NCBI GenBank assembly: GCA_016788565.1
Contig: JAEUSP010000063.1
Coordinates: 71,919-135,918, forward strand
Source of the DNA: Chlorobiota bacterium
GTDB lineage: Bacteria; Bacteroidota; Ignavibacteria; OLB7
Direction of reading: 5' to 3'
DNA length: 64,000 bases
Shown here: one piece after another, positions 55,248 through 62,104 of the stretch
Layout: every line of letters begins with the position of its first letter
Numbering within the stretch: position 1 is the first letter of the stretch
Notes under the pieces: generated by a model
Database searches by the model: none
What the model saw: the letters and a program-made list of their open reading frames with translations, nothing else
Told to the model about the DNA's origin: nothing
Position numbers and translations under genes: made by a program

Positions 55248-57245
55248 ATGCCAACACTTGCACCTTCCCGAAAAAAACTGCGCGTGGTCGCGGCGGACTT
55301 CCTGAACTCGCTTCCACTAACCGTGGAAATGGCCGAAGATGAGTTGTTCAATTTCGAATATGTGATCCCCAGCGAAGGGGCGCGCCGAATGATGGAGCAG
55401 GAAGCCGACATCGCTTTGTTGCCGGTGGCGGCCGTGGCCGAGATTGGCGGCTTGGAGGTTGTCCCCGGCCCTTGCATCGGCGCAAACGGAAGGGTGGAGT
55501 CGGTGGTGATTGTCAGCCAGGTTCCGCTGGATAAGGTTCAGCGATTGCTGATTGACAACGCCAGCCGGACCTCGGTGGTGCTGGCAAAAATTTTCATGGA
55601 TTCGGTGGGGAAAGGTGACATCCCATTTATTCGGATGCCGGGCCAAGCGATTCCGGCAAACGTGAAAGGGACTGATGCTGGCCTTCTGATTGCCGACATC
55701 GCTTTCCGCGAATCGAAGCAGTTCAAATATCGCCACGACCTTGCCGATGCGTGGAAACGATTAACTGGCGAACCGTTTGTTTTTGCCGTCTGGGCTGCGC
55801 AGCCCGGGGTGCTTACTCCAGAGTTGGTGGAGCGAATCAACCGCCGGTTTTGGGATGGGATTGCCCGCAAGCATCAGATTATTGAGGAGTGGGCCGCGAA
55901 ACATGGAATGCCAAAAGCTGAGGTGGCCGATTATTTGGATGAGCGCATTCAGTTCAATCTGAACAAATCCGCGTGGTACGGAATGCAGGAATTTTTCCGG
56001 TTGGGAAGCAACATGCGATTGCTTCCCGATGCACGGGTGGAATTTGCCACGCCGCAGGAACCGCAAAACGGCATCAACACCTTCGGCAAATTTGTGCCGG
56101 AGGTTGTCCCCTACAGCCGCAGCTATGGCGTGGATCGAATTTTGGCGCGCGCCGATGCTGGCCGCCGCATCAGCATCCACGATGCCGAACGGCTCTATCT
56201 GGAGGCGGACTTGACCGACATCGGTGAGGTTGCCAACAACATCCGCAATCGGATGAACCCTGGCGGGCGTGTCAGCTACATTATTGCCCGCAACATCAAC
56301 TACACCAACGTCTGCAATGTGGATTGCGGTTTCTGCGGATTCTACCGCAGCGATGACCCCAAGCGCAAAGGCCACAACGAAGGCTACGTCCTGACCCGCC
56401 AGCAGCTCCGCGAAAAAATGGATGAGCTTGCCGACGGCGATGGTGTGCAGGCATTGGTGCAAGGTGGGGTGAACCCAAATTTGCCGCTGGAATACTACAC
56501 CGACTTGCTCCGTTGGATGAAACGTGAGTGGCCGCAAATCCAGCAAAACAGTTTCAGTGCCGACGAGGTTCTGGGGCTGTGTCCGAACACAACTCCGCAA
56601 GAAATTTCCGCCGTGCTGCACGCCTTGCGCGATGCTGGTTTGGACACCTTTGCTGGTGCCGGGGCGGAGATTCTGGTAGATAAAGTTCGCAAGCGGGTAA
56701 GCTACAAGAAGAGCCGCTCGGCGGTGTGGTTAGAGGTGATGCGGCAGGTGGGGATCATGGGGATGAAGGCCTCGGTGACGATGCTGTACGGCATGGGAGA
56801 AACCACCCGTGATAAGTTTGCGCACATGGCAAAAATTCGCCAGTTGCAAGATGAAGTTTCCCCGTTTATGGTGTTTATCACGTGGCCGTACCAGAAAGGC
56901 CCTGAGCAGAAAATTAAATCGTTCGACCAAGCCGGGGCAACGTATTTACGGGTGCAGGGGATTTCGCGAATTTTCTTCGATAATATCCAGCACATCATGT
57001 GCAGTTGGGTGACACAAGGCCCTGACATCGGCCAGACCGCGCTTTATTATGGAGCCGATGATTTTGGGTCGGTGATGTTCGAGGAGAACGTGGTATCGGC
57101 CAGCGGAACCACCTACAAAATGAACGCAAACTCCATGGAGCATTGCATCCGCGAAGCAGGCTTTATTCCATTCCGCCGCAAAGGGGATTTTAGCGAGTGG
57201 GACTTGGTGGAGCATCAGATGCTGCAAAATACTCGCGTACTATGA
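55248..57245 (+). CDS. Fusion of MqnA (chorismate dehydratase, PBP-like fold) with a radical-SAM MqnE/MqnC-type enzyme (futalosine menaquinone pathway)
   Basis: The N-terminal approximately 270 aa are MqnA-like (LRVVAADFLNSLPL..). The C-terminal approximately 380 aa carry NINYTNVCNVDCGFCGF (Cx3Cx2C) and MqnC/E/CofH-like motifs. Which of MqnC or MqnE it is cannot be decided by eye. Confidence 0.65.
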   Translation: MPTLAPSRKKLRVVAADFLNSLPLTVEMAEDELFNFEYVIPSEGARRMMEQEADIALLPVAAVAEIGGLEVVPGPCIGANGRVESVVIVSQVPLDKVQRLLIDNASRTSVVLAKIFMDSVGKGDIPFIRMPGQAIPANVKGTDAGLLIADIAFRESKQFKYRHDLADAWKRLTGEPFVFAVWAAQPGVLTPELVERINRRFWDGIARKHQIIEEWAAKHGMPKAEVADYLDERIQFNLNKSAWYGMQEFFRLGSNMRLLPDARVEFATPQEPQNGINTFGKFVPEVVPYSRSYGVDRILARADAGRRISIHDAERLYLEADLTDIGEVANNIRNRMNPGGRVSYIIARNINYTNVCNVDCGFCGFYRSDDPKRKGHNEGYVLTRQQLREKMDELADGDGVQALVQGGVNPNLPLEYYTDLLRWMKREWPQIQQNSFSADEVLGLCPNTTPQEISAVLHALRDAGLDTFAGAGAEILVDKVRKRVSYKKSRSAVWLEVMRQVGIMGMKASVTMLYGMGETTRDKFAHMAKIRQLQDEVSPFMVFITWPYQKGPEQKIKSFDQAGATYLRVQGISRIFFDNIQHIMCSWVTQGPDIGQTALYYGADDFGSVMFEENVVSASGTTYKMNANSMEHCIREAGFIPFRRKGDFSEWDLVEHQMLQNTRVL

Positions 57246-57978: not shown

Positions 57979-59493
57979 CTACCACAGCTTGCTAAACGCC
58001 GGATAAAAAAGCAATCCAAGCCGTGGCTGGCTTAGGAAAAATTCTGTTTTCCGGCGTGGCAGTACCCGCTCGGACATGATTTTTGAGACGTACCATTCTG
58101 CCGTTGGGGCAACAATGCCGAAGGGTGTTTTGATATTGATAGCAATCCCAAACGCCCCGCTAAGCCCCAAGCCTGTTTCCACAAATTCTTTGTAGTTAGT
58201 GTCGCGCACTTCTTCAACCAGCCATTGCTCCAAGCCATAAGAATTTCGGAAATACGTTAGCCCAAGCGAGGCGTGAAGGTTAATCACCGACATCGGGTTG
58301 CCGGTGAACCGGAAGTTAAACCCAAATTGTTGGTGGTCGTTCGGCGGTGCAAATTCTTTCCCCGTTACGTTGGTGTAGGTGGTGTCGTACAGGATGGTGT
58401 TACGGCTTTGGGTGTAGGTAAGGTCTAACTGCAACCAATGGACATCCAAACTGCGGAGCGGCGTTCCGCTTAGCCAGATGCCGTAGCCAGGAACAGCGTT
58501 GGCATCAGTAAGCGACCCGCTGATGATGGAGGTGGAAGCAAAATGCCCCCCAAAACCAAACCACTTCTCGTATGGCTCCGAAGGTTTTGCCCGGGCAGTA
58601 ACGGAGTCTGCCGGCGATGCCGGAAGGGGAAGGGTGAGCGATGAAATATCAGCAGGCGGCTGCCGATTGCTGGTAGCTGATTGCTGCGCTACGGCTGGCA
58701 CGCAAGCCAACATCATCAGCAGTAACATCAGTTGAAAAAAACGCTTGGCGTTTGCTGTTGTCGTCGTCATAATTTCCTGTAAAGTCGTGCCTCGAAGTTC
58801 GGCCATCTTCTGTGCAACCAATTCCACAAATGCTGGCTCGTTCCGCTTGCCACGGTGTGGGATCGGGGTCATGTAGGGGGCATCGGTCTCAATCATAATG
58901 CGGTCGTCGGGAACAGCGCGCACAACTTCATCCAACGCCCCCTTGCTGAAGGTGATGTTTCCGGTGAAGGAGATCATCCCCCCCAGCCCTACGGCTTGTT
59001 CCAAAACATCCATTCCGCTGCTGAAGCAATGCAGTTGGAATCGCAAGCTGCCATCCTGTTCTTCCTCCAATATCCGCAGCACGTCCTCATCCGATTCCCG
59101 GTTGTGAATCACCGCCGGAAGCCCAACGGCTTTTGCAATCTGAAGTTGCCTGCGGAACACTTCATGCTGCCGAGGCCTGGGGGCGAAGTCGTAATGGTAG
59201 TCCAAGCCAATCTCCCCAACAGCAATTCCGTTCCCCTGTTGCAGCAGCTCCTGAACCTGATCCAGATCGCTGTCGGCAATTTCGGCAGCATGGTGCGGGT
59301 GAACCCCAATGGCAACATGAATCTGCGGAAACCGCTTGGCCAGCTGCAACGCCGGCTGGAATTCCTGTGGCTTGGTGGCCGGTATCACCACCGCTTCCAC
59401 CCCGGCTTCAGCTGCGCGCGCCAGCACCTGCTCGATGTCGTCGGCAAAACGACCAACGTACAGATGGGCGTGGGTATCAATCAGCGAGCGCAT
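57979..59493 (-). CDS. tatD: TatD-family metal-dependent hydrolase fused in-frame to a signal-peptide-bearing beta-barrel-like domain
   Basis: Residues 1-255 are TatD (IDTHAHL, GVHPHH, GEIGLDYH, VIHNRE, METDAPY). At residue 256 an internal Met opens a canonical signal peptide (MLLLMMLACVPAVAQQ). About 245 aa follow, rich in Gly/Tyr/Thr/Phe and ending ..FYPAFSKLW. No stop separates the two parts. Confidence 0.55.
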   Translation of the reverse strand: MRSLIDTHAHLYVGRFADDIEQVLARAAEAGVEAVVIPATKPQEFQPALQLAKRFPQIHVAIGVHPHHAAEIADSDLDQVQELLQQGNGIAVGEIGLDYHYDFAPRPRQHEVFRRQLQIAKAVGLPAVIHNRESDEDVLRILEEEQDGSLRFQLHCFSSGMDVLEQAVGLGGMISFTGNITFSKGALDEVVRAVPDDRIMIETDAPYMTPIPHRGKRNEPAFVELVAQKMAELRGTTLQEIMTTTTANAKRFFQLMLLLMMLACVPAVAQQSATSNRQPPADISSLTLPLPASPADSVTARAKPSEPYEKWFGFGGHFASTSIISGSLTDANAVPGYGIWLSGTPLRSLDVHWLQLDLTYTQSRNTILYDTTYTNVTGKEFAPPNDHQQFGFNFRFTGNPMSVINLHASLGLTYFRNSYGLEQWLVEEVRDTNYKEFVETGLGLSGAFGIAINIKTPFGIVAPTAEWYVSKIMSERVLPRRKTEFFLSQPRLGLLFYPAFSKLW

Positions 59494-59956: not shown

Positions 59957-62047
59957 TTATCGTTTGCCGCCAAATTTTTTCCCGCCGCCAGGTCGCCCTC
60001 CGCCAAATCCTTTGTTGAAGTCGCGGCGTGGCCGTTCGCCATCGTTGCGGCGGTCGCCAAACGGGCGGCGGTTGTCATCGCGTTTCCCGAAGCTCCGTTC
60101 GCCAAAATCGTGGCGTGGCCGTTCGCTATCGTTGCGGTCGTTGAAGTTGCGGCGTGGCCGTTCGCCATCGTTGCGGTCGTTGAAGTTGCGACGTGGGCGG
60201 TCGCCGTCGTTGCGGTCGTTGAAATCACGGCGTGGTCGGTCGCCAAATGGGCGGCGGTCGTCATCCCGTTTCCCGAAACTCCGTTCGCCGAAATTGCGGC
60301 GTGGCCGTTCGCCATCGTTGCGGTCGTTAAAGTTGCGGCGTGGCCGTTCGCCATCGTTGCGGTCATTGAAATCACGGCGTGGTCGGTCGCCAAATGGGCG
60401 GCGGTCGTCGTCCCGTTTTCCGAAACTCCGTTCGCCGACATTGCGACGTGGCCGGTCGCCATCATTGCGGTCGTTGCGGTCGTTGAAGTTGCGACGTGGC
60501 CGATCTCCATCGTTGCGGTCGTTGAAATCACGGCGTGGTCGGTCGCCAAACGGGCGGCGGTTGTCATCCCGTTTCCCGAAGCTCCGTTCACCGAAATTGC
60601 GGCGTGGGCGTTCGCCGTCGTTGCGGTCGTTGAAGTTGCGGCGTGGGCGGTCGCCGTAGGGCCGACGGTCGTCGTTTCTTGCTTCCGAGCTGCGGCGTGG
60701 GCGGCTTTGGTCTCCACGTTCTTCAAACTTGCGGCGTGGCCGTTCGCCTTCTTGCTCACCTTGCTCCATCTCCGGTTTCCCCCCTTCATCATCGTGCGCC
60801 ACGAACCGCTCGGCACTCCGTTTCCGAATCGGGCGGTTGCCCCCTGTTTCGGCTCCTGCGTCTTCTTCGGCTTCTTCGGCCACACGCTCTTCTCCCCAAA
60901 TTGTTTTGTACGTTGTTGCGGGTTCGGGCCAAGCGGTATCATCATCTTCCTCCATTTCCAACTCCAACTCTTCTTCATCAAGCTCGGAGTGCGGCCCCAG
61001 CACCACAACAAATTCGCCACGGAATTTTTTCTCAACGAACCGCTCGTTCAGCCCTGCAAGGGTGTCGTGCAGCACTGCTTCGTTCGGCATGGTGAGGTTC
61101 ATGGCCAACGCGGCGGGGCGCAGTGGCATGGCATCGGCAAGGATGGAGAGAAGGGAGCGAAGGCGGTAGGGAGTTTCCAGGATGACCACCGTGCGGGTGC
61201 GGAGGCGCAGTGCTCGTGCGGCAAGTTCCCGTTCGCCAATTTTGCGGGGAAGGAACCCAACCATATCGAATTCATCAATCCCAAAACCGCTGACCATCAG
61301 GGCTGTGGTGATGGAGCTTACGCCCGGGATGACCGTTGGCCGCAACTTGAGTTCGCGCAGTTTCTGGACTAACGTTGCGCCTGGATCCGCCACCAGCGGC
61401 AATCCGGCATCGCTGATAACGGCAACGGTTTTTCCGGCGTTCAGCAGTGCGATCACTTCTTCGGTGGCTTCTTCCTCGTTGTGTTCGTTCATCTCCATCA
61501 GCTTTGCGCTGATGTTGTGAGTTCGCATGATTCGCGCACCAACTTTTGCTTCCTCGCAAACCACAACATCGGCGTTGGCAAGGGTGCGGATTGCCCGCAG
61601 CGTGATGTCGCCATCGTTGCCGATGGGGACCCCAACAAAAAAGATATTCCCGGAGCGTTTGATCCGTACTGCTTCGGTTTCTTCTTCCGTCTCTTCCTCG
61701 CTTGTGGCCTCATCTTCGTTCGGCTGGTCAATCTCCGCAGCATCTGCCAAGCTGGCTTCGGTCTGTTCGGCCTCTTCTTCCTTCGGCTCATCCCGCTCGT
61801 CAGCGTCCGCCATGCTAATTTCTTCCAAGCTGCGTTCGGTCTGCTCGGCTTGTTCTTCCATTGCGGGTTCCTCGGTTCCGGCGTTGCCGGTGGGTGTGTC
61901 GCTCGTTTCTGGGATGAAGGTTGCGTCCTCTATCTGCAGAGGTTGTTGCACCGGCTGTTCGCTTGGTATCGTGGTCTCTTCCGCGTTATCTGGTTGGTTG
62001 GTCATGGATTGCGTTGATGAAAAAAAATCTGAGTCACTCTCGTGCAC
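59957..62047 (-). CDS. rsmI: 16S rRNA 2'-O-methyltransferase RsmI core, with an acidic N-terminal extension and a roughly 330-aa C-terminal Arg/Asp-rich tandem-repeat tail
   Basis: Core: IFFVGVPIGNDGDITLRAIRTLANADVVVCEE ... AGLPLVADPG ... ETPYRL (tetrapyrrole-methylase fold, RsmI). Tail: about 10 copies of the RPRRNFNDRNDGE(R) / FGERSFGKRDDNRRPFGD units. The start is uncertain: the listed start is GTG inside a 14-nt tandem array. Confidence 0.65.
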   Translation of the reverse strand: MHESDSDFFSSTQSMTNQPDNAEETTIPSEQPVQQPLQIEDATFIPETSDTPTGNAGTEEPAMEEQAEQTERSLEEISMADADERDEPKEEEAEQTEASLADAAEIDQPNEDEATSEEETEEETEAVRIKRSGNIFFVGVPIGNDGDITLRAIRTLANADVVVCEEAKVGARIMRTHNISAKLMEMNEHNEEEATEEVIALLNAGKTVAVISDAGLPLVADPGATLVQKLRELKLRPTVIPGVSSITTALMVSGFGIDEFDMVGFLPRKIGERELAARALRLRTRTVVILETPYRLRSLLSILADAMPLRPAALAMNLTMPNEAVLHDTLAGLNERFVEKKFRGEFVVVLGPHSELDEEELELEMEEDDDTAWPEPATTYKTIWGEERVAEEAEEDAGAETGGNRPIRKRSAERFVAHDDEGGKPEMEQGEQEGERPRRKFEERGDQSRPRRSSEARNDDRRPYGDRPRRNFNDRNDGERPRRNFGERSFGKRDDNRRPFGDRPRRDFNDRNDGDRPRRNFNDRNDRNDGDRPRRNVGERSFGKRDDDRRPFGDRPRRDFNDRNDGERPRRNFNDRNDGERPRRNFGERSFGKRDDDRRPFGDRPRRDFNDRNDGDRPRRNFNDRNDGERPRRNFNDRNDSERPRHDFGERSFGKRDDNRRPFGDRRNDGERPRRDFNKGFGGGRPGGGKKFGGKR
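59975..60700. repeat. In-frame DNA tandem repeats (about 105-bp super-unit made of about 30-bp sub-units) encoding the RD-rich tail
   Basis: Repeated ..cgttgcggtcgttgaagttgcggcgtggccgttcgccatcgttgcggtcg.. blocks are visible across 60000-60660. Confidence 0.8.
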
Positions 62048-62104
62048 TCACTCTCGTGCACTCACTCTCGTGCACTCACTCTCGTGCACCCACTCTCTCA
62101 CTCG
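62035..62104. repeat. 14-nt tandem repeat (cactctcgtgcact x4-5) at the 5' end of the rsmI-like gene
   Basis: Read directly. Confidence 0.85.

Follow-up and report, generated by a model that had tools for sequence, protein, structure and literature searches.

In Escherichia coli, the 16S rRNA methyltransferase RsmI, a homodimer that modifies the 2'-OH of C1402 in assembled 30S subunits, has been described both in a crystal structure (5hw4) and in complex with the 30S subunit (9pzg). A 2026 cryo-electron microscopy study assigns catalytic, metal-binding and S-adenosylmethionine (SAM)-binding roles to E44, D92 and D100, and finds that R196, K200 and W202 grip C1404 and G1405, with K200 called crucial (PMC13037946). 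In the same work, the C-terminal domain of the auxiliary protomer binds 16S helix 23b at U697-A702, removal of this domain or of its third helix alone almost abolishes methylation, and these C-terminal interactions are assumed to be conserved across the RsmI family (PMC13037946). Disordered additions to RNA enzymes are known from two further systems. In eukaryotes, the conserved catalytic domain of fibrillarin gained an Arg/Gly/Phe-rich disordered domain, the glycine- and arginine-rich (GAR) domain (PMC7194090, PMC9957100). The Rho protein of Bacteroides thetaiotaomicron has an intrinsically disordered region (IDR) whose basic motifs make it condense in an RNA-dependent way, an activity that an acidic motif in the same region autoinhibits (PMC13269538). 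Here we describe an rsmI-like gene on the reverse strand of a 64-kb window (64,000 nucleotides of Chlorobiota bacterium assembly GCA_016788565.1, contig JAEUSP010000063.1) whose product lacks the C-terminal domain and places its catalytic core between an acidic N-terminal extension and a long, arginine-rich tandem-repeat tail. On balance, we favour the explanation that this is the lineage's RsmI, acting on C1402 of 16S rRNA and belonging to a domain-less branch of the family, and that its tail serves as a multivalent, low-specificity tether to RNA or the pre-ribosome that is tempered by acidic segments.

The assignment to RsmI is carried by family matches, fold and catalytic residues. PF00590 (TP_methylase) is the only Pfam domain found (residues 135-332 when numbered from an upstream GTG, E 1.5e-37). 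The top NCBIfam model is that of RsmI (TIGR00096, 149.9 bits, profile positions 3-229 of 275 aligned), which remains the best-scoring family by a wide margin. The sequences of 3kwp, 9pzg and 5hw4 are matched in the Protein Data Bank with E-values of 1e-34 to 1e-36, and Foldseek against the same database places the Lactobacillus RsmI-like structure 3kwp first, followed by 9pzg and 5hw4 (E 1e-20 to 1e-23), with tetrapyrrole methylases ranked lower. The counterparts of E44, D92 and D100 are all present (Table 1), and N23, H68, F144, R174, D137 and K148 of the E. coli enzyme are likewise retained. The contacts to rRNA are altered at several other positions: R196, K200 and W202 correspond to M302, M306 and N308, and the helix 44 (h44) contact residues Y103 and H104 are likewise not conserved. 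In addition, PF23016 (RsmI_C, the canonical 46-residue C-terminal helix-turn-helix domain), which is detected in the ordinary homologues P0040 and P0041, finds no match in the window protein even at E<=1. Judged by its fold, best family match and catalytic residues, the protein is of the RsmI type, in a variant architecture without one defining domain. The tail is thus not an addition to a complete RsmI: the enzyme has no C-terminal domain, a point that the first-pass annotation had not noticed, and its core has exchanged two residues that contact RNA.

The gene is a single uninterrupted open reading frame (ORF) at 59957..62047 (-), with 696 codons counted from a GTG at 62047, the start taken in the first-pass annotation. 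This start needed correction. The GTG sits within a tandem repeat of the 14-bp unit GTGCACGAGAGTGA that varies in copy number between strains (four copies in the window and three in L009/L010, while in L011-L015 the repeat is degenerate). A 14-bp unit does not fit a whole number of codons, and any change in copy number would shift the frame; the repeat stretch cannot therefore be coding, and the GTG was rejected as a start. Since the GTG lies in this frame-incompatible, variable repeat and the orthologues begin with MTN(Q/E), including one at only 61% identity, the ATG at 62005 (MTNQPDN...) is most likely, indeed almost certainly, the real start. The predicted protein then has 682 residues, a mass of 78.2 kDa, a pI of 5.06 and a net charge of -28, and the N-terminal extension shortens from the roughly 140 residues first proposed to 117. 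Each GTGCACGAGAGTGA copy holds the palindrome GTGCAC, and a run of eight T follows the repeat just upstream of rsmI; the repeat might influence rsmI expression. A promoter and terminator scan around the gene gave nothing meaningful: one terminator-like match lies inside the coding sequence on the opposite strand, and such matches are fewer than in shuffled sequences. Rfam and tRNA scans of the 64-kb window returned no matches, and the window holds no rRNA gene.

Numbered from the ATG, the protein divides into four segments: an acidic N-terminal extension, the core, an acidic linker region and a basic tail (Table 1). An AlphaFold2 (AF2) run with a 33-sequence alignment gave the core a predicted local distance difference test (pLDDT) score of 76-95, and residues 1-115 and 356-682 scored below 50 with no secondary structure. 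The N-terminal extension, 33% of which is Asp or Glu, scores 33-45, again without secondary structure. The 80 residues directly after the core (342-421) carry a net charge of -21, which brings the acidic linker and N-terminus combined to -54. The following 261 residues are of another kind, dominated by Arg, Asp, Asn, Phe and Gly. Charged residues make up 55% of them (a fraction of 0.55), Phe occurs 23 times and only one residue is aliphatic; the net charge per residue is +0.11 and the pLDDT 34-41, and over residues 442-682 there are 70 Arg against 8 Lys. The tail is therefore predicted to be disordered, highly charged, aliphatic-poor and Arg-dominant among its basic residues. Composition and domain matches thus bear out the earlier description: the enzyme is of the RsmI type, its N-terminal extension is acidic, and it ends in a long tail of tandem repeats rich in Arg and Asp. 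The AF2 scores and the near-absence of aliphatic residues bear out its view of the tail as IDR-like, and by the AF2 scores the N-terminal extension is IDR-like as well. The tail length of about 330 residues given there stands in part: the downstream stretch was counted at 334 residues, but only the last 261 are basic repeats, and the first 80 after the core are strongly acidic.

The array within the tail consists of 14-15 units, each initiated by RPRR, of two kinds, RPRRNFNDRNDGE (13 residues, A) and RPRRNFGERSFGKRDDNRRPFGD (23 residues, B), which follow one another in B-A-A(-A) super-repeats. At the DNA level the base unit is 39 bp and the super-repeat 147, 156 or 186 bp; a DNA repeat of about 105 bp, as first reported, is absent. 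At 60051-60655, Tandem Repeats Finder (TRF) detects several arrays that overlap one another; their periods are 39, 147, 156 and 186 bp, their matches 86-90% and their scores 577-791, far beyond chance. Beyond the array, the CHB2 orthologue (P0009), although only 61% identical overall, matches the final 21 residues of the C-terminal cap (NFNKGF...GGKR) without a difference. Its repeats are not the same: there the unit is DRPRRNFGDRDN, of 12 residues, in about 15 copies.

The array is also the site of length polymorphism, as became clear when seven contigs, drawn from several samples and studies and encoding 91-98% identical proteins, were compared at the DNA level. Gene order is constant in all seven (dUTPase, AI-2E transporter, rsmI, bcp, tatD). 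From the same ATG, near-identical strains encode alleles of 669, 638 and 576 residues compared with 682 in the window, and these alleles (L009, L011, L014) differ from the window by in-frame loss of whole repeat units and a few point changes. The same alleles recur across independent samples. The longest exact internal repeat is 44-68 bp, below the k values in the contig names (k141, k127), so repeat collapse is not forced during assembly; given such short exact repeats and alleles that differ by whole in-frame units, assembly collapse was rejected as the cause of the length differences. The earlier expectation of a variable tail length was therefore correct, and no stop codon or frameshift separates core and repeats, an architecture shared by the seven independently assembled contigs. 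In a comparison with the 638-residue allele, 25 codons of the tail differ, 19 of them synonymously and 6 non-synonymously (for the most part exchanges of Asp and Glu), although some of these synonymous differences may stem from alignment of paralogous units; in the core the counts are 3 and 0. This pattern indicates purifying selection on tail composition alongside length polymorphism. Taken together, the in-frame alleles, mostly synonymous substitutions and conserved cap imply that the tail is coded, variable in length and under selection. Among database relatives, one 478-residue protein (P0011) is RsmI-like to about residue 324 and then continues as unrelated sequence, probably from a chimeric contig.

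We next consider how widely this architecture is distributed. The core served as query for an exhaustive HMMER search of 1.84 billion cluster representatives; of the 15,156 relatives that it yielded, the nearest 149 were classified. A tail of at least 80 residues past the core (median 245, up to 464) and no C-terminal domain is the state of 77 of these; 41 have the domain and no long tail, 30 end right after the core (220-260 residues) with neither domain nor tail, and one is intermediate. Long tail and C-terminal domain occur together in none of the 149, and PF23016 is found in none of the 77 tailed homologues. The three states fall into blocks when the cores are placed on a neighbour-joining tree, where parsimony requires 11 changes over 150 tips. 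E44, D92 and D100 are near-invariant in all three classes. R196 is kept in 39 and K200 in all 41 of the domain-bearing homologues, and both are replaced by C, M, L or T in nearly all tailed homologues and most short ones. Because they co-occur across the architectural classes, loss of the domain and loss of R196/K200 go together. Named members belong to Kapabacteria, Chlorobi/Chlorobiota, Ignavibacteria and unclassified Bacteroidota metagenome-assembled genomes (MAGs). The orthologue comparison that the first-pass annotation had proposed thus finds tails in about half of the nearest representatives, and the architecture is, on this distribution, a clade-wide trait and not peculiar to the window genome. 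A scan of genome contigs with the core gave 8 loci, the window's own genome not among them.

What the tailed homologues share is composition more than sequence. In orthologues that are 40-61% identical, different DNA encodes tails of an equivalent kind, and the repeat units of relatives are unrelated, being RGG/FGG-rich, S-rich or K-rich. The distal part is nonetheless net positive in 72 of the 77 tails, and the acidic-proximal, basic-distal block order is found in 29 of them. Fourteen tailed representatives, chiefly from the window's closest sub-clade, have an acidic N-terminal extension; these extensions are 47-200 residues long and have net charges of -12 to -83. The same sub-clade shows one short conserved element. 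The pattern [GW][WNSGH][SAKRH]P[VIF][RK][RK], derived post hoc from the same sequences, occurs once in 11 of the 15 sub-clade tails (shuffle mean 0.02) and in 1 of 81 other tailed homologues. In the window it corresponds to the island GGNRPIRKRSAERF; elsewhere in the sub-clade it reads GGW(S/A/K)PV(R/K)(R/K) and lies at the acidic-to-basic transition. Most relatives with the acidic N-terminus have its equivalent, and other tailed RsmI proteins almost never do. This island is a candidate binding motif.

The proteins that the tail resembles bear on its possible role. When the window tail and the CHB2 tail were searched separately, 124 and 84 proteins were returned, although low-complexity matches inflate the statistics of such searches and make their E-values unreliable. 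RluB/RsuA-type 23S pseudouridine synthases account for about 105 of the 120 matches listed for the window tail and 77 of 84 for the CHB2 tail. The remaining matches are SpoU/RlmB-type methyltransferases, an RlmI/K-like methyltransferase, RimP, an S1-domain protein and DEAD-box/DbpA-domain proteins. In every tail match there is a tandem array of (D/E)RP(R/K)R-x-(F/Y)-x-D repeats, in many cases N-terminal. The near-exclusive association of this tail type with rRNA-directed enzymes is the informative part, and the RNA- or ribosome-related role suggested earlier receives indirect support from it, as nearly all proteins returned are rRNA-modifying or ribosome-assembly proteins. Two flavin-reductase-like proteins (PF01613; P0047, P0130) with DRP(R/K)RDF-type repeats form the only annotated family among the matches that is not RNA-related. 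No match in the CHB2 tail search was labelled CHB2. The exact repeat-unit DNA pattern had 0 matches in JGI metagenome contigs, which is uninformative, since the relatives sit in ENA. Our literature search found no description of a tailed RsmI without the C-terminal domain, or of such tails on bacterial rRNA enzymes.

Our preferred explanation joins these observations as follows. The gene would encode the RsmI of a Kapabacteria/Chlorobi-group bacterium, a SAM- and metal-dependent 2'-O-methyltransferase for C1402 of 16S rRNA, in a family branch from which the C-terminal three-helix domain has been lost. Past the core, the polypeptide would be a disordered block copolymer in which the acidic linker comes first and Arg-rich, mixed-charge, Phe-punctuated repeats come next. 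The roughly 15 RPRR clusters per chain, spaced by Asp and Asn, could each bind RNA weakly, which would make about 30 weak sites per dimer should the enzyme be dimeric as in E. coli, and together they would hold the enzyme on rRNA or on a late pre-30S particle. The tail may in this way provide affinity or local concentration, for which the E. coli enzyme relies on its C-terminal domain, R196 and K200. The interspersed Asp and Asn, the acidic linker and the acidic N-terminus would damp non-specific binding and keep the protein soluble. The repeats would expand and contract by slippage or unequal recombination, leaving length polymorphic and composition maintained.

Several points weigh against this explanation. 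RNA binding by the tail would follow from the association just described, whose search statistics are inflated, and the damping role of the acidic segments from analogy only. The N-terminal extension, with 3 synonymous and 5 non-synonymous differences from the 638-residue allele, appears weakly constrained in sequence. The match to TIGR00096 does not reach the equivalog cutoff of 167.9, a shortfall that arises because the C-terminal region of the profile, where the domain is missing, stays unaligned. The changed h44-contact residues allow a different target or mode of recognition. Finally, the 30 close homologues with neither domain nor tail, some of them named RsmI by the Prokaryotic Genome Annotation Pipeline (PGAP), mean that the tail is not an obligatory replacement for the C-terminal domain; the idea of the tail as a strict substitute is weakened accordingly.

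Among the alternatives, one that we regard as rather unlikely yet still worth weighing is that the tail is chiefly a condensate or localisation signal. Under this alternative, tailed rRNA enzymes would co-partition with nascent rRNA in a nucleolus-like ribosome-biogenesis compartment, and the acidic and basic blocks would give self-association or regulated coacervation. The recurrence of one repeat grammar on RluB, RlmB/SpoU, RimP, S1 and DEAD-box proteins would be expected of such a signal, as would the acidic/basic block architecture with more than 50% charged residues. The RGG/FGG-rich tails of related RsmI proteins recall the fibrillarin GAR domain (PMC7194090, PMC9957100), and Bacteroides Rho provides a precedent for IDR-driven, RNA-dependent condensation (PMC13269538). 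However, the tail-search matches come from other lineages, and outside the rsmI gene the 64-kb window holds no other segment rich in R/K and D/E, no RP[RK]R cluster and no further such tail. Within the tail, moreover, charges are well mixed rather than blocky, and the net charge per residue is modest. Condensation also overlaps with tethering rather than excluding it.

The observation that repeat number differs among near-identical strains raises an alternative that we consider improbable, namely that the extensions are neutral low-complexity expansions, produced by runaway slippage of coding repeats and tolerated as disordered, with an enzyme that works like its short homologues. The unrelated repeat units of the orthologues, the functional-looking short, tail-less homologues and the weakly constrained N-terminal extension are all compatible with it. 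Neutral expansion sits less well with the persistence of tails of 80-464 residues across 77 clusters (50% identity), 72 of which have a distal part that is net basic, with the excess of synonymous over non-synonymous changes in the tail, with the conserved cap and the short motif in 11 of 15 sub-clade members, and with a tail type found almost exclusively on RNA enzymes.

It is very unlikely, in our estimate, that the protein is not a functional RsmI orthologue and that this domain-less, R196/K200-less branch methylates another RNA, with the tail as a new means of substrate recognition. The score below the RsmI equivalog cutoff, the missing docking domain and the non-conservation of R196, K200, W202, Y103 and H104, which contact h44 in E. 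coli, would fit such a change of target. RsmI is nevertheless the best match by both sequence and fold, relatives are annotated as RsmI, and the catalytic residues are retained together with the h44 contacts N23, H68, F144 and R174. An artefact, whether a mis-assembled or expanded repeat, a frameshifted rsmI fusion or a wrong frame through the repeats, is largely refuted and has next to no probability left: repetitive GC-rich DNA does leave several frames open, the relatives do come from short-read metagenome assemblies and P0011 does appear chimeric, but the same continuous ORF recurs with conserved synteny in contigs from several samples and studies, its exact internal repeats are shorter than k141/k127, every allele difference is made of in-frame whole units, and orthologues at 40-61% identity carry equivalent tails on different DNA.

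These proteins matter beyond the window. At least 77 sequence clusters do without a domain that is deemed essential for 30S recognition and probably conserved in the family (PMC13037946), and they offer a natural experiment on how a site-specific rRNA methyltransferase finds its target without a structured docking module. They also provide a natural test of whether disordered Arg-rich tails contribute to ribosome biogenesis in bacteria, and both the resemblance to fibrillarin GAR and the recurrence of the repeat grammar on other bacterial rRNA enzymes widen the interest. Databases already contain many such sequences. Some bear an automatic annotation as RsmI; close relatives are labelled 'hypothetical protein' because the missing domain drops their score below the RsmI annotation cutoff. 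It is tempting to speculate, as a long shot, that the R-rich mixed-charge tails of Kapabacteria, Ignavibacteria and Bacteroidota-type bacteria are a shared 'address label' on rRNA enzymes, a bacterial convergence with fibrillarin GAR. Were this true, RsmI, RluB, RlmB, RimP and DEAD-box helicases would be recruited to nascent rRNA in a nucleolus-like assembly zone, the structured, sequence-specific docking of RsmI would have been replaced by fuzzy multivalent binding, and the acidic N-terminus would act as an autoinhibitor.

Table 1. Features of the rsmI-like locus, in window positions; residues are numbered from the ATG at 62005 (CDS, coding sequence; HTH, helix-turn-helix).
Feature	Residues	Window position	Strand	Description and basis
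rsmI-like CDS	682 aa + stop	59957..62005	-	Probable ATG start; orthologue N-termini and upstream 14-bp repeat polymorphism
14-bp tandem repeat GTGCACGAGAGTGA x 4.6		62034..62097	-	5' intergenic, contains spurious GTG; TRF and strain comparison
Acidic N-extension	1-117	61655..62005	-	Glu/Asp/Thr/Pro-rich, net -33, pI about 4, predicted disordered
RsmI catalytic core	118-341	60983..61654	-	TP_methylase fold, N-terminal and central domains, net -3
Catalytic/metal/SAM residues	E151, D199, D207	61553-61555, 61409-61411, 61385-61387	-	E. coli E44, D92, D100
Acidic linker, LDEEELELEMEEDDD...	342-387	60845..60982	-	Occupies the place of the canonical flexible linker and C-terminal HTH; composition
Short motif GGNRPIRKRSAERF	388-401	60803..60844	-	First basic cluster past the acidic linker; candidate short linear motif
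Basic mixed-charge tail	422-682	59960..60742	-	Net +29, pI 11.5, 15 RPR[RH] clusters, predicted disordered
Tandem-repeat array	453-657	60035..60649	-	13-aa and 23-aa units, about 4 super-repeats; TRF and unit parsing
C-terminal cap RPRRDFNKGFGGGRPGGGKKFGGKR	658-682	59960..60034	-	Last 21 residues conserved in the CHB2 orthologue

Downstream of rsmI, bcp starts 22 nt past the rsmI stop, and the last 17 nt of the bcp peroxiredoxin ORF are at the same time the first of the tatD ORF (59477-59493, -). This spacing and overlap suggest that rsmI, bcp and tatD are co-transcribed. The ORF of the TatD-family hydrolase (57979-59493, -) has 504 residues, and its TatD domain covers residues 5-254 only. The remaining 250 or so residues begin with a signal-peptide-like hydrophobic stretch LMLLLMMLACVPAVAQQ, end in ...YPAFSKLW and have no Pfam match; the same 504-residue ORF is present in all related contigs and could be a fusion or a second gene in the same frame. 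Further along, a 665-residue ORF at 55248-57245 (+) with VitK2_biosynth (MqnA-like), radical-SAM and CofH_C domains looks like a fusion of two enzymes of futalosine-pathway menaquinone biosynthesis.

Set beside canonical RsmI (TIGR00096 / PRK14994; E. coli YraL; 5HW4, 9PZG), the window protein shares the class III TP_methylase fold with its N-terminal and central domains, about 30% identity over 230 residues, and conserved E44, D92, D100, N23, H68, F144 and R174. It differs in being without the 42-46-residue three-helix C-terminal domain that binds h23b, in having R196, K200 and W202 replaced, and in its gain of a 117-residue acidic N-terminal IDR and a 341-residue C-terminal IDR. The short RsmI homologues of 220-260 residues, from Bacteroidota and Nitrospinota MAGs, are alike in having no C-terminal domain, a core 39-48% identical and, in most, replaced R196/K200; unlike the window protein, they stop a few residues past the core and have no tail or N-terminal extension. 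The tails of RluB-type, RlmB/SpoU, RimP and DEAD-box/DbpA proteins share the (D/E)RP(R/K)R-x-(F/Y)-x-D grammar in tandem units of about 8-13 residues, predicted disorder and attachment to an rRNA-directed enzyme. They are joined to different catalytic domains, often at the N-terminus, and the likeness is compositional or convergent, homology not being demonstrable.

Further afield, the Rho IDR likewise belongs to a housekeeping RNA-binding enzyme of the same superphylum, and it too is long and conserved in composition though not in length or sequence (PMC13269538). It is, by contrast, an internal insertion, K/E-rich and with a prion-like Q/N segment, and its condensation has been demonstrated experimentally, whereas that of the window tail would be a prediction. 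The closest functional analogy is fibrillarin, in which an rRNA 2'-O-methyltransferase likewise bears an Arg-rich, Phe-punctuated disordered domain, and other lineages conserve its catalytic domain without this addition; the tails of related RsmI proteins from Kapabacteria are true RGG/FGG repeats. Fibrillarin, however, is a Rossmann class I, snoRNA-guided enzyme, whereas the window enzyme is class III and would stand alone, and because the methyltransferase folds are unrelated, any likeness would be convergent. Compared with GAR, the window tail is R/D/N-rich, contains only about 12% Gly and is C-terminal. In composition, an analogue is found in the arginine-enriched mixed-charge domains of eukaryotic speckle proteins.

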